From NCBI GenBank assembly GCA_030592285.1, contig JAUVJU010000001.1:1-60713 (forward strand): a DNA stretch of 60,713 nt, given 5' to 3'. The position numbers and the translations under genes are program-made. Positions 1 to 43,243 of this stretch are shown here, piece after piece. The stretch is from a candidate division WOR-3 bacterium. Its GTDB lineage: Bacteria; Hydrothermota; 32-111. How positions within the stretch are numbered: position 1 is the stretch's first letter; every line of letters starts with the position of its first letter. The notes under the pieces were generated by a model that was not told the origin of the DNA, did no database searches, and worked only from the letters and a program-made list of their open reading frames with translations.

Positions 1-2283
<2,283 letters not shown>

Positions 2284-2300
2284 TTGTTTGTTCCTCCTGT

Positions 2301-3149
2301 TTATATTTTTTTTAAATAATTCTTAACATTTTCAATTATCCAGTCCGGCGTTGATGCTCCTGCAGCAATACCTATCACCTTGGTAGAATCACTTATTATT
2401 GAAACATCAATGTTTTTTTCAGTTTCTATATGATACGTTCTTGAGTGAATTCTTTTACATAATTCATAAAGTCGTTTAGTGTTAGCACTATTATATCCGC
2501 CAATAATGAACATTACATCAACTTTTTTTGCAAGTTCAACAGCGGATTTTTGTATTTGTGATGTTGCATTGCAAATAGTATTAAATATTCTAATTTCCTT
2601 ATAATAATCAAAGATCATCATAACCATTTCCTTATAATGTGCCAAATCCTGCGTTGTTTGCGAAATAACTCCAATCTTTGTATTCTTTGATTTTTCAATA
2701 TTTTTCAAATCACTCTCATTCTGAATAACAGTTACATTGTTTTTTGCCTGACTTTTTAATGCTTTAACCTCTGGATGATTCTTTTCACCTATTACAAAAA
2801 CAGGGTATCCTTCCTTATGCAATTTCACAACATATTCTTGTGCCCTTCTCACAAATGGACAAGTTGCATCAATTACTGTAATTTCCTTGTTTTCCAATTT
2901 ATGCATAAGATTCTTTTCAACCCCATGAGTTCTAAGTATTATTACACCTTTATCAATTTCATTAATATTCTCAATCACATTTATTCCACTATTTCTTAGT
3001 TTTTCAACTGCTTGCGGATTATGAATTATGGGACCCAATGTACATATAGGCATATTCTTATACTCTGTTGATACATCGCTTATCATATTCATTGCTCGTT
3101 TAACACCAAAGCAGAATCCGGAATGTTCTGCAATTACAATTTTGCGCAT
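2301..3149 (-). CDS. ispH: 4-hydroxy-3-methylbut-2-enyl diphosphate reductase
   Basis: Motifs GFCFGVKRA, LGPIIHNP, SQTT, NTICNATS and GGYNSANTKRL. Confidence 0.92.
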   Translation of the reverse strand: MRKIVIAEHSGFCFGVKRAMNMISDVSTEYKNMPICTLGPIIHNPQAVEKLRNSGINVIENINEIDKGVIILRTHGVEKNLMHKLENKEITVIDATCPFVRRAQEYVVKLHKEGYPVFVIGEKNHPEVKALKSQAKNNVTVIQNESDLKNIEKSKNTKIGVISQTTQDLAHYKEMVMMIFDYYKEIRIFNTICNATSQIQKSAVELAKKVDVMFIIGGYNSANTKRLYELCKRIHSRTYHIETEKNIDVSIISDSTKVIGIAAGASTPDWIIENVKNYLKKI

Positions 3150-3823
3150 TTCTTTTTTAAATCTCCTATTTCATTCATCATAATTTGAGTTATAATTCTT
3201 GCATTTTTTGAATTCGGTTTAATATTTTTAAAAAATCTTACCTCACCAATCATTATTATTAATCGTTTTTTTCCAAATAATAATCTCAATAAATTCATAT
3301 TTGCATTTTTTATGAAAAAAGTAATAAATGGTGTTTTTGATTTCAATGCAATATAACCGGCTCCTGCCTTTCCTTTTAACATTCTATGGGTTTTATTTCT
3401 GGTACCCTCCGGAAAAACAACAAGATTCCCACCATTCTCAAGAATCTGAATTCCTGATTTAAGTGTACTCATATCAAGACCCGACCGTCTTAAAGGAATT
3501 GCCTTTAAGGCACTTATCAAAAATGCAAAATATGAATTAAAATTAAAAAGTTCTTCCTTTGCAAAAAAGTAAGTATTTATACTACCTGTCAATCTATACA
3601 TTGTATAACCGATAATGGGTGGATCAGCAAATGATATATGATTTGACACTATAACTAAAGATTTATATCCCTTAGGGATTGTTCCTATAATTCTAGCTCT
3701 AAAAATTTGAGAAACCACAAAATGGATTACTTTAATTACTAAAATGTAAATTTTTTCTAACTGTCTTTGCTTTCTCAATGACAAACTTGATCTGGTCCTC
3801 CTTGGACAATTTTGTAGTATCAA
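3134..3823 (-). CDS. plsC: 1-acyl-sn-glycerol-3-phosphate acyltransferase family protein (start uncertain)
   Basis: Acyltransferase motifs NHISFAD (HX4D) and FPEGTR. The longest ORF overlaps the cmk 3' end by 92 nt, and no ATG/GTG/TTG alternative is visible after the cmk stop. Confidence 0.75.
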   Translation of the reverse strand: MILQNCPRRTRSSLSLRKQRQLEKIYILVIKVIHFVVSQIFRARIIGTIPKGYKSLVIVSNHISFADPPIIGYTMYRLTGSINTYFFAKEELFNFNSYFAFLISALKAIPLRRSGLDMSTLKSGIQILENGGNLVVFPEGTRNKTHRMLKGKAGAGYIALKSKTPFITFFIKNANMNLLRLLFGKKRLIIMIGEVRFFKNIKPNSKNARIITQIMMNEIGDLKKKCAKL

Positions 3824-4409
3824 TCAGAATAGCATTTTCTGCCATTCTCAAAGGTGCATACTTACGGGTCTTATCACGGTTGTCTCTTATTTCAATTTCA
3901 TCTTTAATATTATCAATTTCAACATCAATTCTATTTTGAAGATATTCATTGTAGCGTCTTTTTGCTCTCTCGTCAATAGAACATTCAATATAAAATTTTA
4001 AAGCTGCATTTGGAAAAACCACTGTGCCCATATCTCTTCCTTCTGCAACAATATCACATTTATTCCCTATATCACGCTGAAGAGATACAAGAAAATCCCT
4101 TACACATTTTAAAGTTGATATTTTTGATGCTGCCTGAGATATTTCTTCATTTCTAATTTCTTTTGAAACATTCTCATTATTTAAGAAAATATTCCTATCT
4201 TTATCAAATGTAATATTTATATTATCTAAATGTTTTTTAACATTATTCTTATTCATTACATCAATATTATTTTTAATCATATATAGTGCTGCTGCTCTAT
4301 ACATAGCACCAGTATCAAGATAGATCATTCCCAGCTTTTCAGCACTTCCCTTTGCAGTTGTTGTCTTTCCCGAACCTGCAGGTCCATCTATTGTTATTAT
4401 AAATGTCAT
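3732..4409 (-). CDS. cmk: cytidylate kinase
   Basis: P-loop ITIDGPAGSGKTTTAK, 225 aa, in the classical cmk-rpsA neighbourhood. Confidence 0.92.
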   Translation of the reverse strand: MTFIITIDGPAGSGKTTTAKGSAEKLGMIYLDTGAMYRAAALYMIKNNIDVMNKNNVKKHLDNINITFDKDRNIFLNNENVSKEIRNEEISQAASKISTLKCVRDFLVSLQRDIGNKCDIVAEGRDMGTVVFPNAALKFYIECSIDERAKRRYNEYLQNRIDVEIDNIKDEIEIRDNRDKTRKYAPLRMAENAILIDTTKLSKEDQIKFVIEKAKTVRKNLHFSN

Positions 4410-4414
4410 ATCAC

Positions 4415-5818
4415 TTAAAAATACAATTCAAATTCATAAGGATGCGGTCTTTTATTTATACTTCTAATTTCATTTCTCTTATATTTTATATATGCCTTAA
4501 TAATATCGGCTGAGAATACATTGCCAATTGTTAGAAATTTATAATCATTTTCCAGAGCATCTAATGCCTCATCAAGAGATGAAGGGCAGCATCTAATATT
4601 ATTCTTTATTGAATTAGATGCTTTTTCCATATTCATATCATAGGGACCAAAATGATTGTTTTTAAGAGATATTTTATTTTTAATTCCATCAAGTCCGGCA
4701 AGTAGCATTGCTGAACAAGCAAGATATGGATTACTCGTTGCATCTGGCGGTCTGAATTCAATTCGTTTTTCATTCTTATCGGTTGCATATTTTGGGATTC
4801 TGATTGCAGATGAACGATTTGCCAAAGAATAAAACAATTTAACAGGTGCTTCAAATCCCGGAACCAGTCTCTTATATGAATTGGTTGATGGATTTGTAAA
4901 GGCAAGTAATGCCCGTCCATGCATTAATAGTCCTGCAATATAATATTCAGCATTTTTGGAAAGCCCTCCATAACCCCTTTTATCATAAAAAATATTTTTT
5001 CCCTTTTTAAATAAATGCTGATGAAAGTGCATGCCTGAGCCAGGCATATTATACATGGGTTTAGGCATAAATGTTGCAGACACATTATTATTAATTGCAA
5101 CTGTTTTTATTATATTTTTAATTGTTTGAGTATATTCAGCAGCATTTAGTATGGGATATCTGATTATTTCAATTTCATTCTGTCCGGCTCCAACTTCATG
5201 ATGATGATAAATAACCTCGATTCCCAGTGCCATAAGTATTTCCGAAATTTGATTTCTTATACTTAATGATTGGTCTTTAGGACATACAGAATGGTATCCA
5301 TTATGTTTACCTAAAAATTCTCCGGTATCATTAATATTCTCATCATAAGACATATTGCCTTCAAATAGATCAATCATTGCAAATGTAATATTTTTTTCGT
5401 TTTTCACTTCAACTCTGTCAAAAAGATAAAATTCAAATTCAGGTCCGAACATTGCTTTGTCGGCAATACCGGTTTTCTTCATATATTTTTCTGCTCTTCT
5501 TGTAATACTACGCGGATCTCTTTCATAATCATTTTTTGTATCTGCTTCTCTAATATCACAGAAAAAACAAATAGTTGAATCATCATTATAACTAATATGA
5601 ATGGTATTTAAATCGGGCAGCAAAATCATATCACCGCCTTCCAAACTTTTAAAACCAGCACAAGATGAAGAATCAAAGCCCACACCATGCTTCATAATAT
5701 GATCAAATCGTGCCTGCGGTAAAGTAAGCCTGTGGAGATTTCCCATTAGATCGGTAAATTTTAATTCAATCCATTTGTATTTCTTTATCTGTTTTTTATT
5801 AAATTTCTCAACTGTCAA
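4415..5818 (-). CDS. glnA: glutamine synthetase, type I-like
   Basis: Motifs GSGMHFHQHL and NPSTNSYKRLVPGFEAP, 467 aa. AGGAGG lies upstream of the start. Confidence 0.9.
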   Translation of the reverse strand: MTVEKFNKKQIKKYKWIELKFTDLMGNLHRLTLPQARFDHIMKHGVGFDSSSCAGFKSLEGGDMILLPDLNTIHISYNDDSTICFFCDIREADTKNDYERDPRSITRRAEKYMKKTGIADKAMFGPEFEFYLFDRVEVKNEKNITFAMIDLFEGNMSYDENINDTGEFLGKHNGYHSVCPKDQSLSIRNQISEILMALGIEVIYHHHEVGAGQNEIEIIRYPILNAAEYTQTIKNIIKTVAINNNVSATFMPKPMYNMPGSGMHFHQHLFKKGKNIFYDKRGYGGLSKNAEYYIAGLLMHGRALLAFTNPSTNSYKRLVPGFEAPVKLFYSLANRSSAIRIPKYATDKNEKRIEFRPPDATSNPYLACSAMLLAGLDGIKNKISLKNNHFGPYDMNMEKASNSIKNNIRCCPSSLDEALDALENDYKFLTIGNVFSADIIKAYIKYKRNEIRSINKRPHPYEFELYF

Positions 5819-5869: not shown

Positions 5870-5909
5870 GTCAGACGTTATCCGCTAGAAAGAAACATAA
5901 GGTCGGGCC

Positions 5910-5938
5910 TTGACATTTTGACAATTGTTTTATATACT
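5910..5938 (+). promoter_or_regulatory. candidate promoter for the RAYT gene; its -35 box lies inside the left inverted repeat
   Basis: TTGACA (5910-5915), 17-nt spacer, TATACT (5933-5938), followed by AGGAGG at 5951-5956. Confidence 0.4.
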
Positions 5939-5960
5939 ATATACAAAACAAGGAGGCGTT

Positions 5961-6848
5961 TTGGGTAAACCTAGAATCAAATTAACAAACCATTTCTATC
6001 ATGTAATGAACAGAGGTGATAAGGGAGAATATATCTTTGATGATGATCAAATGAAACGGTTGTTTTTAAAGGAATTGAGTTTCTTCAAGAATAAGTATCT
6101 TATTAAAATCTCAGCATTCTGTATTATGGACAATCATTTCCATTTGATTATCAAGGACAAAGAAGGTTGGATAAGTGAATTTATGCACGATTTAGAAACA
6201 GTATTTGCTATGAAATACCGAAAAGAAAAAGGTGGTAAAGGATATGTTTTTCAGAATCGTTTTAAATCACAGATAATACATTATGAAAAATATATGCAAA
6301 ATGCAATAATTTATGTTCTCAATAATCCATGCAGAAAACATCTTGTAAATGATCCTTTAGATTATCATTGGTCTAGTGCTGCTCTACATTTCAATAAAAG
6401 TGTAAACTTTTTAGACAAAAAAATCACCAAAGATTTGTTTGGTTCAAAAAAGAATTTTCTGTATTGTCTTAATAGTAAGATTGATATATCAAAGCATATC
6501 ATTGAAACACCTATTGGACAAATATTAGGTGATCAATGGTATGCAAGTAGTATTTTAGGTAGGTATAATAGACGAATTAAAAACTCCTACTCCACTGGTA
6601 AAAGAAAAGATGACAATGTGGACATATCTATACAATCTGCTTTAATGCTATTTGAATATAGAAAGAAAATATATCTTAAAGAAACTGATTTTGATTCAAA
6701 GTATGGTAGAATAATAAGAAATAAATTGTTGGTATTTCTAAAGGATGAGTGTCAAATGAGATATCCTGAAATTAAATGTGCTTATCCATTTTTTAATATG
6801 AAATATAATGCATTAGCAAAAACGTACTCCAGGTGTAAGCAAATATAG
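5961..6848 (+). CDS. REP-associated tyrosine transposase-like protein (IS200-like Y1 HUH domain with a C-terminal DnaA-C-like HTH region)
   Basis: HUH motif MDNHFHLII, catalytic-Tyr region IIYVLNNPCRKHLV and DYHWSS. I place the start at TTG 5961 after AGGAGG (giving MGKPRIKLTNHFYHVMNRG). The ORF-track start at 5925 would lie upstream of the predicted promoter -10 box. Confidence 0.8.
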   Translation: MGKPRIKLTNHFYHVMNRGDKGEYIFDDDQMKRLFLKELSFFKNKYLIKISAFCIMDNHFHLIIKDKEGWISEFMHDLETVFAMKYRKEKGGKGYVFQNRFKSQIIHYEKYMQNAIIYVLNNPCRKHLVNDPLDYHWSSAALHFNKSVNFLDKKITKDLFGSKKNFLYCLNSKIDISKHIIETPIGQILGDQWYASSILGRYNRRIKNSYSTGKRKDDNVDISIQSALMLFEYRKKIYLKETDFDSKYGRIIRNKLLVFLKDECQMRYPEIKCAYPFFNMKYNALAKTYSRCKQI

Positions 6849-6915
6849 TCGATTTTTTCTAAAAATGTCAAAATGTCAAGGCCCGACCTTATATCATATT
6901 TTATTCTTGATATTA

Positions 6916-11744: not shown

Positions 11745-12158
11745 TTACTCCTCTTTATCTTCAACAAATTCCATTAAAATACCATCCGATGATTTAGGAT
11801 GCATAAAGATTATTGGTTTACCTTCGGCTCCTATTCTCGGTTTATCTCCTATCATTCTATATCCAAGTTCAGAATACTCTTTTATTGTTTTCTCAATATC
11901 ATTAACAGAATAAGCAATATGATGAATTGCATTACCCCTGCTGTTAATAAATTTTGCAATGGGATTTTCAAGGTCAAGCGGCTGAATAAGTTCAAGTAGT
12001 ACACCCTTAATATCAAATATTGCTACCTTTACTCCCTGTTCTTTAACAGTAAGAATCTCTTTTACTTTTTTCCCTGTAATAACTTCATATATCGGTATGC
12101 TCTTTTCAATATCAGAGACCGCAATGGCAATATGATTGAATTTTTTAATCATTGTCAA
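11745..12158 (-). CDS. mce: methylmalonyl-CoA epimerase (VOC/glyoxalase fold)
   Basis: FNHIAIAVSDIEKS and AIHHIAYSV, 137 aa, immediately downstream of the mutase. Confidence 0.82.
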   Translation of the reverse strand: MTMIKKFNHIAIAVSDIEKSIPIYEVITGKKVKEILTVKEQGVKVAIFDIKGVLLELIQPLDLENPIAKFINSRGNAIHHIAYSVNDIEKTIKEYSELGYRMIGDKPRIGAEGKPIIFMHPKSSDGILMEFVEDKEE

Positions 12159-13716
12159 ATTCCCCCCATTTTGATTTTAATACATTAGTAATCTCACCAA
12201 GTGTTACACCATTTTCAACTGCATCAAGAACTGTTTCAAATAAATTTTCATCTGTTTCAGATAATGTTTCAATCTTTTTAAGTAATTTATTTACTTTTTT
12301 ACTATCTCTCTCATCCTTGAATTTTTTTAATTTCTCTAATCTATTCTTTCCTATATTTTCATCTATCTTCATTCTTTTTGGTTTACTTGTTTCATCTGTT
12401 TTGAATTTATTTAAACCAATAATGATATTTTCATTATTCTCAACATCTTTCTGATACTGATATGCAGCATTTTCAATTTCGGTTTTGAAATATCCATTTT
12501 CTACGCATGCAACTGCACCTCCCATATCTTTTATTTTTTCTAAATATTCAAATACCCGTTTTTCAATCTCATTTGTAAGATTTTCAATATAGTATGAGCC
12601 TCCAAGTGGATCAGTTACATCACTAATGCCACTTTCATAGGCAATTATCTGTTGGGTTCTAAGTGCAATATTAACAGATTCTTCTGAAGGGAGAGATAAT
12701 GCTTCATCATATGAATTGGTGTGAAGGGATTGTGTCCCTCCAAGAGCAGCCGATAATGCCTGTAAGGCAACTCTTACAATGTTATTTCTTGGCTGCTGTG
12801 CGGTTAGCATAGAACCAGCGGTTTGAGTATGAAATCTTAATTTCATACTTTTTTCACTTTTTGCATTAAATTGTTCTTTTACAATTTTTGCCCAGATGCG
12901 TCTTGCTGCACGAAATTTAGCAATTTCTTCAAAGAAATTATTATGTGCATTAAAAAAGAAAGATAATCGCGGTGCGAACTTATCAATATCCAATCCCTTT
13001 TTTACAGCATATTCCGTATATGCAATAGCATCAGCAAATGTAAAAGCTAATTCCTGAACAGCGGTTGATCCTGCTTCTCTTATATGATATCCTGAAATAG
13101 ATATTGTATTCCATTTTGGGAGATTGTTTGAACAATACTCAAATATATCAGCAGTAAGCCGCATTGATGGTTCAGGTGGAAAAACATAATTGCCTCTTGC
13201 AATATATTCTTTTAAAATATCATTCTGCACTGTTCCGGATAATTTGGAAATATCTGCTCCCTGTCTCTTTGCAACTGCTACATACATAGCAAGTATGACA
13301 ATTGTTGGAGCATTAATTGTCATTGATGTGGATACCTTATCAAGAGGTATCCCATTAAAAAGTTCTTCCATATCCTTAATTGTTGATATTGCAACACCAA
13401 CCTTTCCCACTTCACCATATGCCAATGTATCATCGCTATCAAGTCCTAATTGAGTTGGGAGATCAAATGCAACAGAAAGTCCTGTTTGACCATTTTTAAG
13501 TAGATATTTAAATCGTTCATTGGTTTCCTTTGCACTGCCAAAACCGGCATACTGTCTCATTGTCCAATGCCTTGTTCTATACATTGTTGGATAAACACCT
13601 CTTACAAAGGGAAATTTACCAGGTTCTCCAATATTATTCTGCTTTTCAATATCATTTTCATCATAAAAAATCTTTAATTCTATACCTGATGGATTAATCT
13701 TTTTTTCATCAGCCAA
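12145..13716 (-). CDS. methylmalonyl-CoA mutase, catalytic (N-terminal) subunit without a B12-binding domain
   Basis: Motifs FVRGVYPTMYRTRHWTMRQYAGFG and GQTGLSVAFDLPTQLG. TTG start preceded by GGAAGG. Confidence 0.88.
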   Translation of the reverse strand: MADEKKINPSGIELKIFYDENDIEKQNNIGEPGKFPFVRGVYPTMYRTRHWTMRQYAGFGSAKETNERFKYLLKNGQTGLSVAFDLPTQLGLDSDDTLAYGEVGKVGVAISTIKDMEELFNGIPLDKVSTSMTINAPTIVILAMYVAVAKRQGADISKLSGTVQNDILKEYIARGNYVFPPEPSMRLTADIFEYCSNNLPKWNTISISGYHIREAGSTAVQELAFTFADAIAYTEYAVKKGLDIDKFAPRLSFFFNAHNNFFEEIAKFRAARRIWAKIVKEQFNAKSEKSMKLRFHTQTAGSMLTAQQPRNNIVRVALQALSAALGGTQSLHTNSYDEALSLPSEESVNIALRTQQIIAYESGISDVTDPLGGSYYIENLTNEIEKRVFEYLEKIKDMGGAVACVENGYFKTEIENAAYQYQKDVENNENIIIGLNKFKTDETSKPKRMKIDENIGKNRLEKLKKFKDERDSKKVNKLLKKIETLSETDENLFETVLDAVENGVTLGEITNVLKSKWGEFDND

Positions 13717-13748
13717 AATACCTTCCTTATTAATATATTTAGTTTTTT

Positions 13749-13777
13749 ATTTTATAATTTTATTATCTTAATGTCAA
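13749..13777 (-). promoter_or_regulatory. candidate promoter for the mcm operon (TTGACA-17-TAAAAT)
   Basis: The minus strand reads TTGACA (13777-13772), a 17-nt spacer, then TAAAAT (13754-13749). Confidence 0.45.
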
Positions 13778-14070
13778 TAGAATTATTGATTTTTGTTTTA
13801 AAATGGAAAAGAAAAGAATATATAATCATGATGTAAAGACTCACACAATTACTCTGAATATATCTTTTCTGCGGAGAAAGACCCTTCGATTAACTCAGGG
13901 CAGGACAAGAAAAAAGAGCAATATATCCCTCAAATTATTTTTAACAAAAGCGGACGAAGACAACCAATATAATCAATATATTCTTCAAATTATTCAGAAT
14001 CAACATATTCCTCAGATTATTCGGAATATGCAACTGCGAATAATAATTTTTATCAATGTATTTCTTGTAA

Positions 14071-14090
14071 GGGCATGGCGTGACATGCCC
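14071..14090. repeat. GC-rich REP-like hairpin (GGGCATG-GCGTGA-CATGCCC)
   Basis: Perfect 7-bp stem, GC-rich against an AT-rich background, 7 nt away from a second hairpin. Confidence 0.7.
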
Positions 14091-14097
14091 TAATAAT

Positions 14098-14123
14098 GGG
14101 CGAACACGCAGGTTCGCCCCTAC
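14098..14123 (-). repeat. REP-like element: GTAG + GGGCGAAC-loop-GTTCGCCC hairpin (minus-strand reading)
   Basis: The minus strand reads GTAG GGGCGAAC CTGCGT GTTCGCCC: an 8-bp perfect stem and a 6-nt loop. Confidence 0.7.
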
Positions 14124-14203
14124 ATTTATTTGGTTGTGTGAGGTAGCATGCCATAGGCATGCCAGGAAAAGATAGTATTTAAAATCAAAATCACAAATTA
14201 ATT

Positions 14204-15538
14204 TTAAAGCATCTCCGCAATCATTTCACTTAATGTAGGGTGTATGTGAACAGTGTTTATAATTGCATCTATTTTACATTTATTATATATTAATGGTAGA
14301 ACTTCATGTATAATCAAATCACTTTCCTTTCCGGATACTGTAATACCAAGAATCTGCTTATCTTTACTAATAATCATTTTAACAAAGCCCATTCTTGCAC
14401 CATAGGCAGCAGCTCTGCCATTATGGGCATAAGAGAATTCCTTTACATTATAATCCTTTCCTCTTTCTATACATATTTCCTCTGTTAAACCTGCATGTGA
14501 CACCGGAGGAACTGTAAAAATCGCATATGGAATATTTGTATAATCTTTATCATAACCATTCCCAATAATATCATTCTTAATGATCATTGCATCATAATAT
14601 GCTTTATGTGCAAGCATTGGGCCGGTTGTTACATCCCCTGCTGCATATATATTATTAATATTAGTTCTATTTCTTTTATCGGTTATTATAAATCCATTAT
14701 TATCCATTTTAATACCAATTTCCTTTATTGATTTATGTATGATAGGATATCTTCCTGTTGCAACAAGAATTTTATCGGATTTAATTTCCTCACCTGATTC
14801 TAATATAATTTTTCGACCTTTTTCATCTGCTTTAATCACACTTTTATTAAGCATTACATTTATACCTGATAATTTTAATGTTTTTTCAACTGAAGATGAC
14901 ACAACACTATTATTTAATGTTGGTAAAACACTATTTAAATATTCAATAATTGTTACCTTGCTACCCAAATTTGAAAAGATAAATGCCAGTTCAATACCAA
15001 TAACACCGGCACCAATAACAGAAAGATTTTCAGGTATAGAATTAAGAGACAGCATATCCTTTGAATTAAGAATAAACTCCCCATCCCTTTTTACTGCTTT
15101 AATATCCTTATCCAATGAACCTGTTGCAATAATAATATGATCTGCTTCAAATGTTTTATTATTCACTTTAATAGTATATTCATTTACAAATTCCGCAATA
15201 CCATTAATAATTGCAATTCCCGCACTATTTAATGTTTTAAGTAATCCCATATTAAGCATTTTAACTGTTCTATCTTTTCTTGCAAGAATTTTGTTCATAT
15301 CCGGCTTAATAGTATAATCAATATCAAGTCCCAGTTTACCGGCATTCTTTATATGTTCAATTGTTTCAATAACTGCAATATATGCTTTGGTTGGTATACA
15401 TCCATAATTAAGGCATACACCTCCAATTGATTGTTCCTTTTCAATTATTAATACCTGTTTCCCTGCATTTGCTAATAATTCTGCTGATCTGTATCCACCA
15501 CTGCCTCCGCCAATTATTATTATATCATATTTAAGCAT
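14204..15538 (-). CDS. lpdA: dihydrolipoyl dehydrogenase
   Basis: Motifs IIIIGGGSGGY, redox centre GGVCLNYGCIPTK and HIHPTLSE. I place the start at ATG 15538, preceded by AGGAGG (the ORF track extends to 15589). Confidence 0.88.
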   Translation of the reverse strand: MLKYDIIIIGGGSGGYRSAELLANAGKQVLIIEKEQSIGGVCLNYGCIPTKAYIAVIETIEHIKNAGKLGLDIDYTIKPDMNKILARKDRTVKMLNMGLLKTLNSAGIAIINGIAEFVNEYTIKVNNKTFEADHIIIATGSLDKDIKAVKRDGEFILNSKDMLSLNSIPENLSVIGAGVIGIELAFIFSNLGSKVTIIEYLNSVLPTLNNSVVSSSVEKTLKLSGINVMLNKSVIKADEKGRKIILESGEEIKSDKILVATGRYPIIHKSIKEIGIKMDNNGFIITDKRNRTNINNIYAAGDVTTGPMLAHKAYYDAMIIKNDIIGNGYDKDYTNIPYAIFTVPPVSHAGLTEEICIERGKDYNVKEFSYAHNGRAAAYGARMGFVKMIISKDKQILGITVSGKESDLIIHEVLPLIYNKCKIDAIINTVHIHPTLSEMIAEML

Positions 15539-15661
15539 TAAATGCCTCCTATTTGATTTCAATGTATCATATTTTAAATGTAAAATCAATACTATATTAT
15601 GTGCAATTATTGCATATTTGCATTTTCATTAAAGCGATTTATATAACTTTTTTTGGCATAA

Positions 15662-34020: not shown

Positions 34021-35459
34021 TCTACCTCCTTAAAGTATTTTTTTCTCTTACTTGCAGGCAATATATCCATTATTTCGCGATATTTTGCCACTGTTCTTCT
34101 TGCAATCATAATTTTATATTGATCTTTTAGAATATCTACAATTCTCTGATCAGTCAATGGTGTTCTTTGATTTTCTTTTTCAATCACCTTTTTAATTATA
34201 TCCTTAACATTTGTTGATGATGTATTACCTTCTTCTGTTAATATTGAGCGGGAAAAGAAAAACTTGAATGGGAATATACCCTTTGCCGTATCAATGTATT
34301 TTCTATAAGTTGCTCTTGAAACCGTTGATTCATGAATCCCCAAATAGTTAGAAATGTCCTGTAATACCATAGGTTTTAAGGCGGAAATACCAAAATGAAA
34401 AAATTCCTTTTGAAGCATAATTATCCGTTCAGAAATATTAAGTAATGTTTTATTCCTTTTATTAATACCAGAAACAAGAAAAATTGCACTATTTAAGCGT
34501 TTTTTAAGAAATTTTTCTTCCTTTTTGGTCAATTTATTCTTCCCCTGCAATATATCAAGGTATCTTTTATTTAAATGAACCTCTGGAAAATAATTGCTGT
34601 TTATTTCAGGAATAAATTCATCTCCCTGCTTTCTCACTAAAATATCCGGTACAATATAATTAGATGACTTGCCCCATTCACCGTTTGCCGGTTTAGGATT
34701 AAGTTTCTTTATATCCTCAATTGCAATTTTAAATTCATCATTGCTAATATCTATTTTATTCGAAATTCTATACATTTTATTTTTAAGAAAATCATCATAA
34801 AAATCATTGATAATTGTAAATGCAAAAGTATCTGTCATTTTTTTATATTTAAGTTGTGTTAGAAAACATTCTCTAACATTCCTGCTCCCTACTCCTATAG
34901 GGTCTAATAATCTGATTCTATCCAAAATATTTTCAAAATTTTTATGAGTAATATTAAATGTCTTAATAATTACATTTTCAATGTTTTCCTCTTCATTTTC
35001 ATGATCTACTTTCAGAAAACCATCATCTGAAAGGGATGTTACAATAAATTCGGCAACTTCCATTTCAAGATGATTTCCAAATTTTATATGAACCTGTGTT
35101 AATAAATGCTGCTTAAAACTTATTGGCTCGGAATATATATCAACAGGATTAAAGTTTTCATGTTCTTTTTTCTTTTTTGAAAAATCAATGCCAGGTTTTT
35201 TCCAATCATCATGGTAAAAATATTCAAAATCAATTTCATCCTTTTTATCTGATTTAGATTCCTCTTTCTCCTTGATTGTAGTTTCAGATTCATCATCATC
35301 TTCAGACATTTCTTCTTCAAGAAATGGATTCTGTTCAATTTCATGCCTGATTAATTGTTGCAGTTCAAGACGCGGCATTTGCAAGATTTTCAACAATTCT
35401 AATAATTGCGGGCTAAGTATCTGCTCCAATTTGTTTTGTAATGACTGTGAGTGCTTCAT
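34017..35459 (-). CDS. rpoN: RNA polymerase sigma-54 factor
   Basis: RpoN box ARRTVAKYRE, HTH LGIHESTVSRA, acidic region II. Confidence 0.92.
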   Translation of the reverse strand: MKHSQSLQNKLEQILSPQLLELLKILQMPRLELQQLIRHEIEQNPFLEEEMSEDDDESETTIKEKEESKSDKKDEIDFEYFYHDDWKKPGIDFSKKKKEHENFNPVDIYSEPISFKQHLLTQVHIKFGNHLEMEVAEFIVTSLSDDGFLKVDHENEEENIENVIIKTFNITHKNFENILDRIRLLDPIGVGSRNVRECFLTQLKYKKMTDTFAFTIINDFYDDFLKNKMYRISNKIDISNDEFKIAIEDIKKLNPKPANGEWGKSSNYIVPDILVRKQGDEFIPEINSNYFPEVHLNKRYLDILQGKNKLTKKEEKFLKKRLNSAIFLVSGINKRNKTLLNISERIIMLQKEFFHFGISALKPMVLQDISNYLGIHESTVSRATYRKYIDTAKGIFPFKFFFSRSILTEEGNTSSTNVKDIIKKVIEKENQRTPLTDQRIVDILKDQYKIMIARRTVAKYREIMDILPASKRKKYFKEVE

Positions 35460-36175
35460 ATTCTAAATTTGTCTCCAAGATATAATTCTCTTGCTTTATC
35501 GCTTTTTATAAGTTCTTCGGCAGTTCCTGTTATAAGCAAATTGCCTTCATATATTATATGGGCAATATCAATTATTTCAAGGGTTTCCCTTACATTATGA
35601 TCTGTTATAATTACTCCAATATTATCTGATGCAAGTTCTCTTATAATACCCTGAATATCCTGTCTAACTTTTGGATCAATTCCTGTAAATGGTTCATCCA
35701 AAAGAAGAAAGGAAGGATTCACTGTTAATGCACGGGCAATTTCAACTCTTCTTCGTTCACCTCCTGATAATTTTGATGATTTTCTTTTCCTTAAATGCCC
35801 TATTTTCAATCTTTCAAGAAGAGATTCTTCTCTCCTTTTTTGTTCTTTCTCTGAAATACCAATCATTTGCAATATTGCCATTAAATTATCTTCAACACTT
35901 AAATTCCTGAAAACAGATGATTCTTGAGGTAAATATCCAATTCCTCTTCTTGATCTTTTGTACATTGGTTCATTTGTTATATTAATATCATCAAAATAAA
36001 TATTCCCGCCATCTGAATTTATCATACCTGTTATCATGTAAAATGTTGTTGTCTTTCCTGCTCCATTTGGACCCAATAAGCCCACTACTGAACCTGTTTC
36101 AACAACTATATTCAGGTCATTTACTACTTTTTTATTCCCATAACTTTTACTCAGATTATCTGCTTTTAATTTCAT
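35456..36175 (-). CDS. lptB: LPS export ABC transporter ATP-binding protein
   Basis: Walker A GPNGAGKTT, signature LSGGERRRVEIAR, Walker B LLLDEP. Lies directly upstream of rpoN. Confidence 0.9.
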   Translation of the reverse strand: MKLKADNLSKSYGNKKVVNDLNIVVETGSVVGLLGPNGAGKTTTFYMITGMINSDGGNIYFDDINITNEPMYKRSRRGIGYLPQESSVFRNLSVEDNLMAILQMIGISEKEQKRREESLLERLKIGHLRKRKSSKLSGGERRRVEIARALTVNPSFLLLDEPFTGIDPKVRQDIQGIIRELASDNIGVIITDHNVRETLEIIDIAHIIYEGNLLITGTAEELIKSDKARELYLGDKFRI

Positions 36176-36221
36176 CTTCTTTTCCTTTTATCTTATTGAC
36201 AATTTAAATTGTTATAAATAT

Positions 36222-36410
36222 CCGCGGAGAAGGAGCATTCTACAAGCTCATGACAAACAAGAAAGAAAATCAATGTATTCTTCAAATTATTCAGAATATA
36301 TCTTTTCTGCGGAGAAGGACAAGAAAAAGGATGAGCATCTGCGATTGACCGATTTGTATGCTTGCAATTCGCAGCAGTTCATCCGTTTACTTGTGTGACG
36401 GAGCAAGAAA
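36222..36410. repeat. mosaic intergenic repeat island 3 (between lptA-like and lptB)
   Basis: Contains two GCGGAGAAGGA units, the hairpin TATTCT-TCAAATTATTC-AGAATA (36276-36298) and a diverged M4 module (36351-36400 vs 40902-40951). Confidence 0.8.
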
Positions 36411-36431
36411 AGATAATAACAATAATTATCA

Positions 36432-37349
36432 CTATTCAACATTTTTTTCAATATCATCTTCTTCTTTTCCTTTTATTATTAATTTTGCATTATTAATCTC
36501 TTTAAATTGTATTTCATTGATTTTTCCATTATCAAAAGTAATTATCATCTCATTACATGAAAGTTCATTTGTTCTATCATCATTTTCTCCAAAAAATACA
36601 ATATTTTCAAACATATTTGCTGATACCAATGAATCATTACGGATATATGCATATAGGGTATCTCCGTTAATATTGTAATCCGTGCTAACAATTGTATTAT
36701 TAAAAGGTGATATCATATAATCAAGATTGGTATAATTAGCAATTGAATCAGTATAAAGAACAAACTCATCTCCTTCTATAGTAACAGAATCAATGAAAAA
36801 TTCAAATGAATCAGGATTATTTCTTACAAACAATCCGGCATTTATGGTAAAATCACCATTAATACTAATCAAATTTACATTATTTATTGCTTTCAAATAA
36901 TCTTCTCTTCTGTCAATTATTAAAGTATCAGATTTCAATTCCTCTCCTCCATTAAAATTTGCTGTTAGATTATTATAGAAAATATGTAAACTATCCTTAA
37001 CAAATATTTCTGCAATATCAGAATATATAATTGATGCATCAGTTTCTGTTTTTTGATTATTTAAAATAAAATGTTTTTCTTTAATACTATAGTATCCTTT
37101 CTCTGCATTTACTTTAAGAGAATCTCCACTTGTCAGAATAAATTCTACAGGCATTATAACAATTGAATCATTTCTTAGCATATATGCTGAATCAATTATC
37201 AGATGATATGAACCACTTTTCAAACTTACTCCTTCATACATAAATACACTATCACCCTTTATCACTGTCCTATTTGATTCCAATACATAACCATTAATTA
37301 AAACAGGTATTATTAATATGCATAATAAGAAATATTGTATTTTATTCAT
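36432..37349 (-). CDS. OstA/LptA-like periplasmic protein (tentative)
   Basis: Signal peptide, beta-rich repetitive sequence, positioned between the LptC-like gene and lptB. Confidence 0.4.
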   Translation of the reverse strand: MNKIQYFLLCILIIPVLINGYVLESNRTVIKGDSVFMYEGVSLKSGSYHLIIDSAYMLRNDSIVIMPVEFILTSGDSLKVNAEKGYYSIKEKHFILNNQKTETDASIIYSDIAEIFVKDSLHIFYNNLTANFNGGEELKSDTLIIDRREDYLKAINNVNLISINGDFTINAGLFVRNNPDSFEFFIDSVTIEGDEFVLYTDSIANYTNLDYMISPFNNTIVSTDYNINGDTLYAYIRNDSLVSANMFENIVFFGENDDRTNELSCNEMIITFDNGKINEIQFKEINNAKLIIKGKEEDDIEKNVE

Positions 37350-37839
37350 TATACATAATTAGCGGGTTTATAAATTCAATCTTAAGAAAATCCATATCAC
37401 TAATAAATCCTTTTGTTTTCATTATATCATTTAACTTTTTAATTAGCAATGAATCATAACATTGCACAATATTACTATCAGGATATAAATAGAGTCGTGC
37501 AGTATATAGAATCATTGAATCCTCCATATGCACTCTTACATTTCCGGAAAATATCAAAGTATTATTGATTTTGATCAAAGAATCTGATAAAAGCCGTATA
37601 TCTGTACTATCATTCTGCCGTATATAATCTATTCCCATCATAATTAAGGAATCATCAAATACAATTATAGTATCCGCATTTAAGGAATAATCAGGAATGG
37701 AGTCCCTGAATGCATCAATTTCTGCATTAATAATTATATCTCTTTTTTGCTCATTTCCTGCTTTATCGGTAAATCCCGAACATGATATTAGAAATAAACT
37801 AAATAGAAATATCTTTCCATATTTTATTATAAAAGTCAT
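37342..37839 (-). CDS. LptC-like protein (tentative; has a lipobox LISC)
   Basis: 165 aa with an N-terminal anchor. Assigned from its position upstream of the LptA-like gene; no strong motif. Confidence 0.3.
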   Translation of the reverse strand: MTFIIKYGKIFLFSLFLISCSGFTDKAGNEQKRDIIINAEIDAFRDSIPDYSLNADTIIVFDDSLIMMGIDYIRQNDSTDIRLLSDSLIKINNTLIFSGNVRVHMEDSMILYTARLYLYPDSNIVQCYDSLLIKKLNDIMKTKGFISDMDFLKIEFINPLIMYNE

Positions 37840-38599
37840 ATTGGTAAATATCCTTTCTTATAATTTTGTCAATATTACTATAGTAATCTTCAAATCTATA
37901 TTTTGATGAATCAATAAAATAAAGGTGATATTTTGATTTTTTATAAATTGAATAACAAAAAATCGGAATTGCTTTTGATACCCTTAATAATTTATACCAT
38001 CCAGAAGGTACTGCTTTTGAAATATTCAGAAATTTCACTGTTTTGAGTGCAAGATTATCAGATTGTTGATCAATAAAGACAATTAAAACTTCTCCTCTAC
38101 TTAGTATTTCTAAGAATATTTTTACAGGAGAATCTCGATTAATTAATATTGTATTATATTTTTTTCTTAATTTGTCAAGGTACTCATATATCCATTCTTT
38201 CTTGTTTTCATAAATGACATTGATTAGATATCCATATTTTGCCAGCAATTGTCCGGAAACATCCCATCCACCATAGTGAAATGAAAGCAGCATAACGCCT
38301 TTACCCGATTTCACTGCTTCATTAAATAACTCAATATTATGCAGTTCAAATATATTCTCATCAAGTTCATTTGATAATAGGTAAATATTCTCACATAGAA
38401 AATGAGCAAAATTCAAATATAATCTTATTGAAAATTTGATATGATTATGTTTCAGATTTTCTTTCATAATGGATTTGCTCTTTATTCCGAATGCGTAATA
38501 TATAAGTGAAATCATTTTTCCAACAAGAATAAATTTCCTTCTGCTTAATCTGTTTGTTAAAAACAAAACAATTTTATAAATCAATTGTCTTCTAAACAT
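37799..38599 (-). CDS. lipid A biosynthesis (LpxL/HtrB-type) lysophospholipid acyltransferase family protein
   Basis: LLSFHYGGWD matches the H.G.WE/D motif of late acyltransferases. Size and N-terminal TM helix fit. Confidence 0.65.
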   Translation of the reverse strand: MFRRQLIYKIVLFLTNRLSRRKFILVGKMISLIYYAFGIKSKSIMKENLKHNHIKFSIRLYLNFAHFLCENIYLLSNELDENIFELHNIELFNEAVKSGKGVMLLSFHYGGWDVSGQLLAKYGYLINVIYENKKEWIYEYLDKLRKKYNTILINRDSPVKIFLEILSRGEVLIVFIDQQSDNLALKTVKFLNISKAVPSGWYKLLRVSKAIPIFCYSIYKKSKYHLYFIDSSKYRFEDYYSNIDKIIRKDIYQYDFYNKIWKDISI

Positions 38600-39677
38600 T
38601 AAATACCTTTTCTATAAATCCTTTTTTTAAAGGAATGCTATCATAAGGGCAAACCTCAATACAACAGAAACATGCAATGCATTTTCTTTGTCTTACAAAA
38701 GGAAAATCATTCTTAATGATTATTGCATTTTCCGGACATATATTATAACAATTCATACATTTTCTACATGTGCTATTCCTGATTTGCGGATAACTTATTA
38801 CAAGCTTTTTAATAAATTTATTATCCGCTACCCTTTTAATCAGTTCAAATCTGTTTGAACTGGGTAATTCATAAGGAAACTTATTATAATCCTTTTCAAT
38901 TTTATATGAACCCAAGTAATATCCTTTTTCAATAGCAAATTTTAAATATCGGATCTTTTCAATTGAAATGTCAGTAAAATCACAAAGAAAATGATCCAAT
39001 GCAAAACCATTATCCGAGACAGCGATAATCCCAGGTTCTACAATTCTTCCATTTGAAGGACCATTCCCATCCATTCCAATAATTCCATCTACAATGTTGA
39101 ACTGTGGACATACTGCTTTGAATATCTTTACAGTAAATTCTGAAAAGGATTTAGGATCTGAATGTTGTGAATGATAAAGAATTTTGTATTTGGAAGGAAC
39201 AAGACCATATAAATTTTTTACTGATAATGTCATTGTAGTCAGCATATGTGTTTTCAATTTCGCAATATTGAAAATGAATGGCTTTTTCTTTAATAATGAT
39301 GTTAATTTTATACCATTGATTTCCATATGTTTATCCGTATTAAAATTCCTTAATTCAATATTATTTCTATTAGCAATATCATCATAACCCGTTTCTATAA
39401 ATATTTTTTTCATATCAAGATACGATGCTGCTGCTCCATCACCAATAATGATTTTGCCTTTGTAATATGGTTTAAGAGCATCAATAATAATTTCAGCTAT
39501 AAGTGGATGTGATGTTACTGCTTCCTGTTTATCTGATATTGAAAGTAAATTTGGTTTAATAAGAATAATTGAGTGATTTTTTATTTTATTATAAATATTA
39601 TACTGTTTAAATACTTCAAGAATAAAGTTAGAAATTTCTTTCCGATTATAAGTTGTAATCCGTTCAAATAGTATCAT
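38592..39677 (-). CDS. DUF362 domain protein with a C-terminal 2x[4Fe-4S] ferredoxin domain
   Basis: IILIKPNLL (DUF362 signature), plus CRKCMNCYNICP and CIACFCCIEVCP. Confidence 0.78.
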   Translation of the reverse strand: MILFERITTYNRKEISNFILEVFKQYNIYNKIKNHSIILIKPNLLSISDKQEAVTSHPLIAEIIIDALKPYYKGKIIIGDGAAASYLDMKKIFIETGYDDIANRNNIELRNFNTDKHMEINGIKLTSLLKKKPFIFNIAKLKTHMLTTMTLSVKNLYGLVPSKYKILYHSQHSDPKSFSEFTVKIFKAVCPQFNIVDGIIGMDGNGPSNGRIVEPGIIAVSDNGFALDHFLCDFTDISIEKIRYLKFAIEKGYYLGSYKIEKDYNKFPYELPSSNRFELIKRVADNKFIKKLVISYPQIRNSTCRKCMNCYNICPENAIIIKNDFPFVRQRKCIACFCCIEVCPYDSIPLKKGFIEKVFNV

Positions 39678-40147
39678 TACTTAATAAAATAAATTAAAGT
39701 TTCAAATCCGAAAATTTTACTTTTGCAGGGATATTTTTGTGTTTTTATAATTTCTTTCGGTTCATCACAAATTTCTTCAATAACCCTTTCATCATAAATA
39801 ATCACATACTTAGGTTGAATAATTAATAATTCCTCTTTAAGAAATTTTTTGCAATTTTTCTTTCCTTCATCTCTCATTTTTCCATGAATTTGAAGAGAAC
39901 ATCTGTATAAATATGTAATATAGGCACCATATTTGATTTCTTTTTCATATAATGTTAACAAACTGGATGTCTTTGCTATAAGTTCAGAACTAATATGAAC
40001 ATTATGACTTTCAGGTTCATATCCGATAATCATCATTTCCTGCATATGATTACCAGAAAAAACAGGAGAACCAAAATTTCTCATCTCACATCCCATACAA
40101 TCTTCAAGTTTCCTCAAAAAATTAAAATACTTCTTTTCTTTATCCAC
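39677..40147 (-). CDS. uracil-DNA glycosylase superfamily (family 4-like) protein, divergent
   Basis: CMGCEMRNFGSPVFSGN...MMIIGYEPES aligns to C..C.L...VfG.G...+++GEAPG, and YLYRCS...NCKKFLKEELLIIQPKYVI to the N.vkCrP...C..+L...i.l+.P block. Confidence 0.5.
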   Translation of the reverse strand: MDKEKKYFNFLRKLEDCMGCEMRNFGSPVFSGNHMQEMMIIGYEPESHNVHISSELIAKTSSLLTLYEKEIKYGAYITYLYRCSLQIHGKMRDEGKKNCKKFLKEELLIIQPKYVIIYDERVIEEICDEPKEIIKTQKYPCKSKIFGFETLIYFIK

Positions 40148-40679
40148 TTTTTCTCCTTGAAAATTTACATCCGCAATAATTCTGCCTGTATAAATTCAAT
40201 TCATTTGATATAGTGATTGATCTCTTAAATCCATTGTTTTTTCTCAGAATTGTCTCAATATATTCAATATCGTATTTTTGAGATAATTCCTGCCCTAAAA
40301 TATTAATTTTCTCGGCTAATTTGTGAGGGCTAATTGTAAGCGTTGTTGAAAAGCAATCCATATCCAATTTTTTTGCTATTAATGCAGTCTGTTTCAAATT
40401 TAGTTTATGGCAAATTATACATCGCTCTGACCTTTCTTCATAATTCTCATAACCCTCTACCGCCTTATCAAACATTAATGTTTGATATTCACCTTTTATT
40501 AAAGCAAAATTATAATGCTTTGATACAATTAATGCCTGTTCATATCTTTTTTCAAATTCATTTTCTGTATCAATATTTGAATTATAGAAATATCCTGTAA
40601 CAGCATAATTCCTTTTAAAATACTCATAAGCATAAGTTGAATCGGGACCACAACAAATATGCATTAACATCTTTTTCAT
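40140..40679 (-). CDS. queH: epoxyqueuosine reductase QueH (DUF208)
   Basis: Motifs HICCGPDSTY, RCIICHKLNL and NYCGCKFS. Confidence 0.85.
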   Translation of the reverse strand: MKKMLMHICCGPDSTYAYEYFKRNYAVTGYFYNSNIDTENEFEKRYEQALIVSKHYNFALIKGEYQTLMFDKAVEGYENYEERSERCIICHKLNLKQTALIAKKLDMDCFSTTLTISPHKLAEKINILGQELSQKYDIEYIETILRKNNGFKRSITISNELNLYRQNYCGCKFSRRKSG

Positions 40680-40749
40680 AATTATTAATTATAATAGAAA
40701 TATATAGTAATTCAAGCATAATAATATGGAATGTGTGATTACCAAAAAC

Positions 40750-41073
40750 AATGTCCCCTCTATTACACATAAGAATACGAATAGCGGAGGAGGACCCTTC
40801 GATTAACTCAGGGCAGGACAAGAAAGAAGATGAATATATTCTTCAAATTACAATGCGTAATACATTCCTCAATTTATTCGGAATGTACATCATTGATAAC
40901 CGCTTTGTATGCTTACTACTCGCAGCAGTTCATTTATTTGGTTGTGTGAGGTAACATGCCATAGGCATGTCAGGAAGAAATAAAAGTTCTTTGTAACATA
41001 TTCCTCGAATTACTCCTGCTCAATACATTCCTCAAATTATTCGGAATATGCTCCTACAATTGATGGGGACATT
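40750..41073. repeat. mosaic intergenic repeat island 4
   Basis: Collinear with island 1 (33-mer, hairpin modules, 46-mer). Bounded by the 9-bp inverted repeat AATGTCCCC (40750-40758) / GGGGACATT (41065-41073). Confidence 0.8.
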
Positions 41074-41075
41074 TA

Positions 41076-42398: not shown

Positions 42399-43243
42399 TG
42401 TTTTCTCCTCTTAAAAAACTTTTCAAGAGCTATATTAGGCTGTTCATTCGTGAACAAATGAATATAATCATAGCCACCATCAAGTGCATCCTTTTTTATG
42501 GACTCTGTAAAAGCATTAAAATCACTTAACCTTGAATTTAGATTGTCGCTTGATACTATATTATCTGTCTCAATATCTTTAAGACGAGTATTTTTTAAAA
42601 CATTTTCATCTTTCTCCAAAAAATCATTTACATGGAATAGTATTACATCACATCCTCTTACTTTTAAAGATTTTAGTGTTAGAGAAATATTTTTTCTATC
42701 ATCTGCACAGTCAGAAATTAAAATGATAATTGAATTTTTTTTAATCTTATCTGCTTTATAATGAATTGAATTCTTAATATCTGTTTTTCCTTTGAATTTT
42801 ATTTTATTTAAATCGATGATTAATTTTGTAAGAAGAGTTCTTTTTCTTGTTGGCTTTTTAAAAAAATGCATTTTATTTGAAAAAAAACCATAACCGCAGT
42901 TATCCAATTGATGAAATGCTATATATGCCATTAAAAAAAAGAGCGTTTTAGAATACTCTGGTTTAATGTTATATGACATTGAACCGCTGATATCCAAAAA
43001 AAGATAAATATCAGCATTTATCTCATTTTCTGATTCCTTTATAAAAAATTTTTCTGTTCTTAGAAAAACCTTGAAATCCAAACGGCTAAAATCATCACCC
43101 TGAACATATTCCCTATACTGTGAAAATTCTGCTGATATACCTTTATATGGAACTCGATGAATACCAGCAAGATATCCCCTTAAAAGAAGTTTTGATCTCA
43201 AGTACATATCTGATATTTTTAGTATCTCTTCAATATTATACAT
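42395..43243 (-). CDS. DUF58 domain protein
   Basis: FSQYREYVQGDDFSRLDFKV matches the DUF58 signature (.YR.Y..GD..R.IDW). Confidence 0.8.
   Translation of the reverse strand: MYNIEEILKISDMYLRSKLLLRGYLAGIHRVPYKGISAEFSQYREYVQGDDFSRLDFKVFLRTEKFFIKESENEINADIYLFLDISGSMSYNIKPEYSKTLFFLMAYIAFHQLDNCGYGFFSNKMHFFKKPTRKRTLLTKLIIDLNKIKFKGKTDIKNSIHYKADKIKKNSIIILISDCADDRKNISLTLKSLKVRGCDVILFHVNDFLEKDENVLKNTRLKDIETDNIVSSDNLNSRLSDFNAFTESIKKDALDGGYDYIHLFTNEQPNIALEKFFKRRKQ

Follow-up and report, generated by a model that had tools for sequence, protein, structure and literature searches.

The closest described counterparts of the repeats reported here are the repetitive extragenic palindromic (REP) sequences, bacterial interspersed mosaic elements (BIMEs) and REP doublets forming hairpins (REPINs) with their REP-associated tyrosine transposases (RAYTs) (PMC3116915, PMC3337134, PMC5581495); the neisserial intergenic mosaic elements (NIMEs), in which dRS3 inverted repeats flank variable RS modules (PMC1797815); and the BOX elements of Streptococcus pneumoniae, made up of boxA, boxB(n) and boxC. 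For REPINs, compensatory changes have been documented in mobile hairpin repeats (PMC3116915). Here we describe three intergenic islands in a stretch of 60,713 nucleotides (the window) from a candidate division WOR-3 bacterium (contig JAUVJU010000001.1). The islands are built from modules designated M1 to M4, together with a central hairpin and, in island 1, a pair of GC-rich hairpins. We consider it likely, with a probability of roughly three in four, that they are local pile-ups of lineage-specific, short, non-coding, hairpin-forming interspersed repeats of the REP, BIME, NIME or BOX kind.

The islands resemble the REP, BIME and REPIN-RAYT systems in being composed of short imperfect palindromes in high copy number, which lie between genes and are clustered in mosaics. 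They also share the compensatory stem changes in modules; the lineage carries a low-copy and apparently vertically inherited IS200-like Y1 gene with flanking inverted repeats, and GC-rich, GTAG-tagged hairpins are nested in island 1. Unlike in the REP systems, however, no GTAG tag accompanies M3, M4 or the central hairpin: the flanks of M3 are CGTAA or CTCAA on the 5' side and ...C on the 3' side, and GTAG is found only next to the GC-rich pair at 14070-14119, on the minus strand. Copies within an island point one way, with neither the inverted doublets of REPINs nor the alternation of BIMEs, and the repeats flanking the Y1 gene are unrelated to the modules, so that no cognate pair is evident. 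M3 moreover occurs in 27-nt tandem half units, the host lineage is uncultured and very rich in A and T, and the sequences have no relation to known REPs.

With the NIMEs the islands share arrays of short inverted repeats interleaved with interchangeable modules, a position between genes, and hypervariability among strains through gain, loss and exchange of modules. The sequences are again unrelated, and the modules here are covarying hairpins. The 20-bp dRS3-type repeat of NIMEs serves as a recombinase target; nothing here marks the short repeat as a target of a phage or an integrase. BOX elements are similarly modular and intergenic, have a predicted fold and contain a middle module in variable tandem number; in the islands, the number of M3 half units varies. 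The islands differ from BOX in sequence, in having many more module types and nested inserts, and apparently in lacking a fixed A...C frame with complementary ends; complementarity of the ends is limited to 9 nt in island 1 and is absent from islands 2 and 3. The family is new, while the kind of repeat is already known; we describe neither a new kind of system nor a new RNA gene.

Modules and covarying hairpins

Repeat finding and all-against-window BLAST showed that the three islands have collinear blocks of repeats in common, all on the plus strand, and found no further module copies in the window. A preliminary description of this DNA had proposed a modular mosaic repeat family with shared collinear modules in one orientation, and both the shared modules and the mosaic contexts in which they occur bear this out. 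It placed the islands correctly but made them too small. Their variable parts are approximately 13782-14203 (island 1, which starts where the conserved promoter-proximal stretch ends and extends to the upstream gene's stop codon at 14204-14206), 36192-36449 (island 2, an insertion absent from a sister species) and 40726-41073 (island 3, replaced by an unrelated 480-nt island at the same site in that species). The order of the modules is cyclic, namely M1, (M2), a purine-rich tract, an M3 array, M1, the central hairpin, M4, an AT-rich tract and M3. An M2 20-mer has 0 expected matches (100 shuffles) and modules recur dozens of times in a related genome, which excludes a chance origin of the repeats.

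M3 has an 8-bp stem and an 11-nt interior. A profile was built from pattern hits in which the Y and R positions were left free, giving 95 copies in the window and in loci of the related genome; in the window, nhmmer identified five complete hairpins and three half units consisting of the left arm and loop. All are on the plus strand. Island 1 contains a half unit without the right arm (13925-13945, E=0.022), a hairpin of the T-A subtype (13980-14000) and one of the C-G subtype (14007-14027), both supported by folding; the stem of the latter is extended to CATATTCC/GGAATATG, and it marks the peak of metagenome depth in island 1. Island 2 has one hairpin (36277-36297). Island 3 has a half unit (40838-40858), a hairpin with arms TACATTCC/GGAATGTA (40864-40884; fold -7 kcal/mol, z -3.6), and a half unit (41000-41020) followed by a complete copy (41027-41047). 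Folding of this last group (41000-41047) gives the distal left arm as the best partner of the right arm. The half units are in tandem with a period of 27 nt.

Covariation was analysed in 60 distinct complete copies of M3 from the window and the related genome, using columns 6-13 with 25-32 and the additional pair 16-22. Standard pairs make up 96.3% of the cells, as against 86.8% in shuffles, and 84 cells are doubly changed where 33 were expected; 0 of 500 shuffles reached either the pairing or the double-change value. Shifting the register by 1-3 columns lowers the pairing to 21-58%. The four covarying pairs are 6-32 (UA 29, CG 23), 8-30 (UA 38, CG 15), 13-25 (CG 35, UA 22) and 16-22 (AU 38, GC 21). 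When pairs 8-30, 13-25 and 16-22 are taken jointly, seven of the eight Watson-Crick combinations are seen, and the signal is therefore more than that of two subfamilies. The compensatory pairing in M3 stems that had been pointed out in the window is thus strong over the whole set. The internal loop, T14 C15 / T23 C24, shows little or no variation. Unpaired intermediates are symmetric, approximately 11 being of the T-G type and 12 of the C-A type, so that a tolerance of G-U on one strand is not visible and the numbers do not separate folding of RNA from folding of DNA. A reading of the M3 loop as a site for integration host factor (IHF; TCAA-N4-TT) was dropped, since TCAA becomes TCGA or TCGG in a third of the copies.

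M1 (TGAATATATCTTTTCTGCGGAGAAAGAC type; TTTTCTGCGGAGRAGGAC) occupies 13853-13879 in island 1, where 13847-13882 is 92% identical to 36285-36320 in island 2, and its motif TTTTCTGCGGAGGAAGAC also recurs in the sister species. In island 2 it follows directly on the M3 hairpin (36292-36320) and from 36311 runs on uninterrupted as GCGGAGAAGGAC-AAGAAA, with no M2. In island 3, by contrast, the M1 core (GCGGAGGAGGAC) carries an M2 insert (40784-40825). M2 is an optional insert in M1 with GGAC on either side; direct comparison showed that the 33-mer at 13880-13912 is, as first described, identical to that at 40793-40825. M2-like inserts of the form CCTTCG...CTCAGG are present in the sister species.

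M4 has the general form …TTGTGTGAGG…AAAAG. The island 1 copy (14123-14168, core CATTTATTTGGTTGTGTGAGG) contains a 7-bp hairpin of 17 nt (14146-14162, from folding), placed between AGG and AGG; the island 3 copy (40931-40976) has the corresponding hairpin at 40954-40970, with A-T as its outermost pair. The two 46-mers differ at two positions, 14146/40954 (G/A) and 14162/40970 (C/T), which are indeed the partners of the outermost pair, although this compensatory change remains a single event. M4 forms without the hairpin occur in island 2 (36380-36410, core TTACTTGTGTGACGGAGCAAGAAAAG), in a related strain (L111) and in several copies of the sister species. The modules of the preliminary description are accordingly real repeats, but two of them, M2 and the M4 hairpin, do not stand alone and are inserted optionally within other modules.

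The central hairpin of island 2 (36330-36383, plus strand, from folding) is nested, with an outer stem GATGAGC/GTTCATC and an inner stem CTGCGATTG/CAATTCGCAG. Its inner stems vary among copies in the sister species yet remain complementary, examples being CTGTGCATT/AATGCACAG and CTGCTC/GAGCAG. In island 1 it is replaced by the two GC-rich, REP-like hairpins at 14070-14091 and 14098-14119 (fold -25 kcal/mol, z -4.2), a block of which a 94% copy is found at a locus of the sister species (L092).

Copy number and turnover at orthologous sites

Copy number was estimated from metagenome depth and from the metagenome-assembled genome (MAG) of the sister species, CBDUZN01, whose DNA is 81-90% identical to the window in the genes on either side of islands 2 and 3. 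For island 1, the list of runs comprised 18 from cold seeps or marine sediment, of which 14 contain part of it and four were added only as runs of the same studies. Depths were summed over contigs in four of the 14 metagenomes that hold part of island 1; they may include related organisms and are therefore upper bounds. On this basis the flanking genes have a depth of 4-7 (4-5 at island 1), compared with 268-392 for M1 (at its second copy), 280-850 for M3 (65-170 times the flanks) and 220-280 over 14103-14139, which covers the second REP-like hairpin and the start of M4. Overall, the modules reach 40-170 times the depth of the flanking genes. Contigs stop inside the islands, and many alternative joints tie each module to other neighbours. 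Even as upper bounds, these depths show a family with a copy number of the order of a hundred.

A degenerate M3 pattern matched 30 stretches in species-representative genomes, 28 of them in CBDUZN01 (on 27 contigs); the other two lie in apparent coding sequence of unrelated bacteria and have the unpaired C...A combination. The 28 fetched loci of the MAG contain 87 copies of M3 according to nhmmer, together with M1, M2-like inserts, the central hairpin and M4 in other orders, and further hairpin modules. Ten M3 copies fall inside crudely called open reading frames (ORFs), which are mostly spurious frames opened by the repeat arrays themselves. Outside this lineage little was found: the M3 pattern gave four solitary unrelated palindromes in JGI metagenome contigs and no match in viral contigs, where M1 had three matches that are likely due to chance, and island 1 had no match in plasmid and phage collections. 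The exact M2 33-mer had no match in the genome-contig collection, which lacks the window's own genome. Homologues of the mutase next to island 1, at 76% identity, are labelled candidate division WOR-3.

M3 points in one direction in 35 of the 37 tabulated island groups, with both directions in L093 and L110 only. In the sister species it runs along the direction of the genes and of the GC skew at 15 loci and opposite to it at three, a bias that is real, though not a rule; all three islands of the window have the orientation that is in the minority there.

Each of the three islands lies between co-directional genes on the minus strand, as had been noted initially. Island 2 is situated between the genes for an ABC ATPase (35456-36175) and for an unknown protein of 305 residues. 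The site is empty in the sister species, where L199rc 1-2070 aligns with window 34122-36191 and L199rc 2051-4647 with 36457-39054. The flanking genes there are 88-90% identical, and the 305-residue gene overlaps the ABC ATPase gene by approximately 29 nt (L199). In the window, 24/27-bp copies of a duplicated target lie on either side of the island, with the result that both gene ends are restored. The left copy (AATTTCATCTTCTTTTCCTTTTAT, 36168-36191), which is single in the sister species, supplies the minus-strand ABC ATPase gene with its ribosome-binding site and ATG start codon; the right copy (AATATCATCTTCTTCTTTTCCTTTTAT, 36450-36476) carries the last codons of the upstream gene, with the final residues altered. 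The tail of the upstream protein (36432-36476) reads …KGKEEDDIEKNVE in the window and …KGKEDEIKSRESE in the sister species. A strain that is approximately 95% identical has island 2 without 36304-36385.

Island 3 lies between the genes for QueH (40140-40679) and for an unknown protein of 440 residues. The flanks align in the sister species (L198rc 1-1736 with window 38990-40725, and L198rc 2217-3756 with 41074-42613), with no alignment between them; the counterpart there consists of 480 nt of unrelated repeats. Island 1 lies between the genes for an acyl-CoA mutase catalytic subunit (12145-13716) and a pyridine-nucleotide disulphide oxidoreductase (14204-15589). In strain L111, whose mutase is 98% identical, the stretch corresponding to 13717-13781 is 97% identical and homology stops at 13781. 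It is followed by a 123-nt block that matches window 14148-14026 in inverted orientation at 87% identity, and that includes the REP-like block and the M4 without hairpin. Contigs of two further relatives (82% mutase) end in the gap of island 1, with other repeats there.

We note that the mutase-bearing contigs L111, L112 and L113, from three assemblies, all stop upstream of the mutase gene, within the first 250-480 nt. The gap upstream of the mutase is therefore a repeat-filled assembly breakpoint across the lineage.

Possible origins of the islands

The preferred explanation is that of interspersed repeats. The modules behave as separate units that insert beside and within one another, examples of such nesting being M2 within M1, the 17-nt hairpin within M4, and the REP-like hairpins in place of the central hairpin. 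They accumulate in a permissive gap between the end of one gene and the next promoter. Gain, loss, replacement and inversion of islands take place over the divergence of strains and of sister species. Because the stems stay paired through compensatory changes, we infer that a folded single strand may be the form that is recognised when a module is copied. That strand would most likely be DNA, recognised by an enzyme that binds hairpins, for example a Y1 (HUH) transposase, or else used in template switching at the replication fork. Any effects on neighbouring genes would presumably be by-products.

Several observations weigh against this explanation. M3 lacks a GTAG-type tag and its copies are not in inverted doublets; the 24/27-bp target duplication does not match the products of either Y1 or ordinary DDE transposases; and no mobilising enzyme is tied to the modules, the sole Y1 gene seen having unrelated terminal repeats. 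The orientation bias of M3 (15 against 3) could reflect a strand-specific function or mechanism, and the covariation in M3 could in part represent a few subfamilies that were copied rather than many independent events. The long target duplication of island 2, the invariant internal loop of M3, the tandem half units and the orientation bias in the sister species are unusual features. They could be accommodated if M3 were a minimal hairpin replicator of a new type, recognised as a folded strand by an enzyme of the lineage, with fork-type copying and long duplications, which we regard as quite unlikely. Such a replicator would be defined by the 8-bp covarying stem, the invariant TC/TC internal loop and a 5-nt loop closed by one extra covarying pair. 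Its copying would proceed, for example, by hairpin-primed synthesis or by template switching at the fork rather than by cut-and-paste, leaving duplications of about 24 bp and tandem half units, and the orientation bias in the sister species would mark the strand of copying.

Functional RNA elements in 3' untranslated regions or between cistrons (stabilisers against 3' exonucleases, RNase processing sites or weak terminators), for which spread would be secondary, seem to us an unlikely origin of the islands. REP and BOX elements affect mRNA stability, and a role of this kind would fit the strong covariation in M3 and the central hairpin, which selection for the fold of the RNA would then account for, the start of the islands directly after the stop codon of the upstream gene, and the orientation of M3 at 15 of the 18 loci in the sister species. 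It would also fit the strong folding of the GC-rich hairpins and their occurrence in two metatranscriptome contigs. These two contigs, which are 90-95% alike, cover 14086-14129, the sole part of island 1 seen there, and probably come from other REP-like copies; the metatranscriptomes of the same study hold almost nothing of the organism, with no flanking gene. However, the islands are absent, replaced or inverted at orthologous sites that retain their flanking genes, including in a near-identical strain, so that a reading as conserved structured RNA or processing sites is not supported. The window islands are all opposite to the majority orientation in the sister species, the unpaired intermediates of M3 show no sign of the one-strand G-U tolerance, and the M3 stems are weak (-2 to -7 kcal/mol). 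No intrinsic terminator (GC-rich stem and T run) was found on either strand of the three islands. A search of Rfam found only two tRNAs in the window, the best island matches scoring 16-25 bits against thresholds of 42-89, with nothing gained at permissive thresholds.

The islands had also been expected to form part of operon mRNAs, and this is not supported. A promoter-like site for the mutase gene (TTGACA-17-TAAAAT, 13749-13777, minus strand, 11/12 matches) lies in the stretch conserved with L111, and one for queH (TTGAAT-16-TATAAT, 40688-40715, minus strand, 10/12 matches) in the stretch conserved with the sister species. Both are located between the island and its downstream gene. Islands 1 and 3 would therefore not be in the mRNA of that gene and instead occupy the space that separates one transcription unit from the promoter of the next; nor is the orientation of the islands to the genes fixed. 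The start of islands 1 and 3 immediately upstream of the conserved -35 boxes might alternatively indicate arrays of sites for a host DNA-binding protein, for example a nucleoid-associated protein or an insulator upstream of promoters, with the palindromic M3 as the site. BIMEs bind IHF and gyrase, and M3 has invariant positions (T14, C15, T19, T20 and C24) beside the arms of its dyad. A duplex site should nevertheless keep its sequence, yet M3 covaries at four pairs; half units without the right arm are common, the islands are dispensable at orthologous sites and no candidate protein is known, all of which makes this explanation highly improbable.

The preliminary description had raised decayed elements akin to miniature inverted-repeat transposable elements (MITEs) as a further option. 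In the sense of mobile repeats, this is close to the evidence, but the ends and short duplications of classical MITEs were not found. Classical MITEs moved by a DDE transposase encoded elsewhere, acting through terminal inverted repeats and target-site duplications, would account for the direct target duplication that flanks island 2, and the ends of island 1 have a 9-nt inverted match (CTCACACAA at 13840 and TTGTGTGAG at 14134). We consider them very unlikely: islands 2 and 3 have no terminal inverted repeats, and the only comparison of an empty with a filled site gives a duplication of 24/27 bp, far above the usual length. Module content differs among the islands, and therefore no single element with fixed ends can be defined. 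The stems covary rather than keep one sequence, which is unexpected for terminal repeats bound by a transposase, and searches of plasmid, phage and viral collections found no counterpart.

ORFs on the plus strand run across islands 1 and 3, and the islands might accordingly be small genes or their decayed remains, for example a 68-codon ORF followed by a hairpin in island 3. The frame there is open from 40751 to a TAA at 40953-40955 inside M4, the G/A difference in M4 preserves the stop (TAG or TAA), and the 27-nt period of M3 is a multiple of three. Against this, the two longest plus-strand ORFs do not agree in the frame of the identical M2 33-mer (at offsets of 77 and 42 from their ATGs), and the central and M4 parts common to islands 2 and 3 likewise differ in frame between these two islands. 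The variable columns of M3 follow the symmetry of the stem with no 3-nt period, modules occur in both orientations and in many orders, and no island plus-strand ORF has a Pfam match. A coding reading of the islands is therefore rejected; the gene explanation is largely refuted, and we leave it only the slightest chance.

The islands have some practical consequences: assemblies of this cold-seep lineage break at such repeats, which also give rise to spurious ORFs and can pass for RNA genes. They are also a natural example, in a deep, uncultured and very AT-rich lineage, of nested independent hairpins with stems that covary in nearly all combinations, and of an orthologous empty site at which two overlapping genes were separated by an insertion, both gene ends being mended by a long target duplication. 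Together, these features could help to explain how repeats are copied where no cognate REP-RAYT pair is evident.

The Y1 transposase gene and additional repeats

The window contains an IS200/RAYT-like Y1 transposase gene (5925-6848, plus strand; Pfam Y1_Tnp, E=6e-7) within perfect 27-bp inverted repeats that extend the element to 5897-6892. The protein has 307 residues with a long C-terminal extension. The gene is present at the same glnA-adjacent site in the sister species, with 82% amino acid identity, which suggests vertical inheritance, and a more distant relative has a 62% homologue that shares the repeat core. Metagenome depth points to two to four variants of the gene, and the sister MAG has a second copy as well as a truncated one abutting M3-like repeats. 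The 27-bp repeats (core TGTCAAAATGTCAA) were found only beside copies of the gene and are unrelated to M1-M4; a link between them and the modules was therefore rejected. The Y1 transposase is a candidate mobilising enzyme of the lineage, and the GTAG-tagged GC-rich hairpins would be better candidate substrates for it.

The Y1 loci compared were window 5897-6892, L118 1477-2445, L119 and L121. In the three comparable flanks of L118 and L119, the outer, GC-rich part of the repeats differs from that of the window (forms GGTCGGGCC, AGTCGGGGG and GGCCGGGCC), left and right still being complementary; L121, the second MAG copy, shares GGTCGGGCC, the form in the window. A -35 box is provided by the inner core TTGACATTTTGACA, which does not vary. 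At L092 2230-2550, in the sister species, a third Y1 copy is reduced to its last 68 or so codons and the right repeat, and M3-like repeats and a GC-rich REP-like hairpin abut the break. One copy of the sole candidate gene for mobilisation thus appears to have been destroyed by the repeats.

Many islands of the MAG, and the relative L113, contain a second hairpin family, ACTGGATTCC-GCATCAAGTGC-GGAATGACA, with highly variable, complementary stems. At four MAG loci (L084, L100, L107 and L108) an M3 unit is inserted in the 5' arm of this hairpin, a clear case of nesting of one module in another. Finally, a near-perfect palindrome, TTGACAATTTAAATTGTTAT, which is not among the shared modules, lies at the left edge of island 2 (36195-36214).

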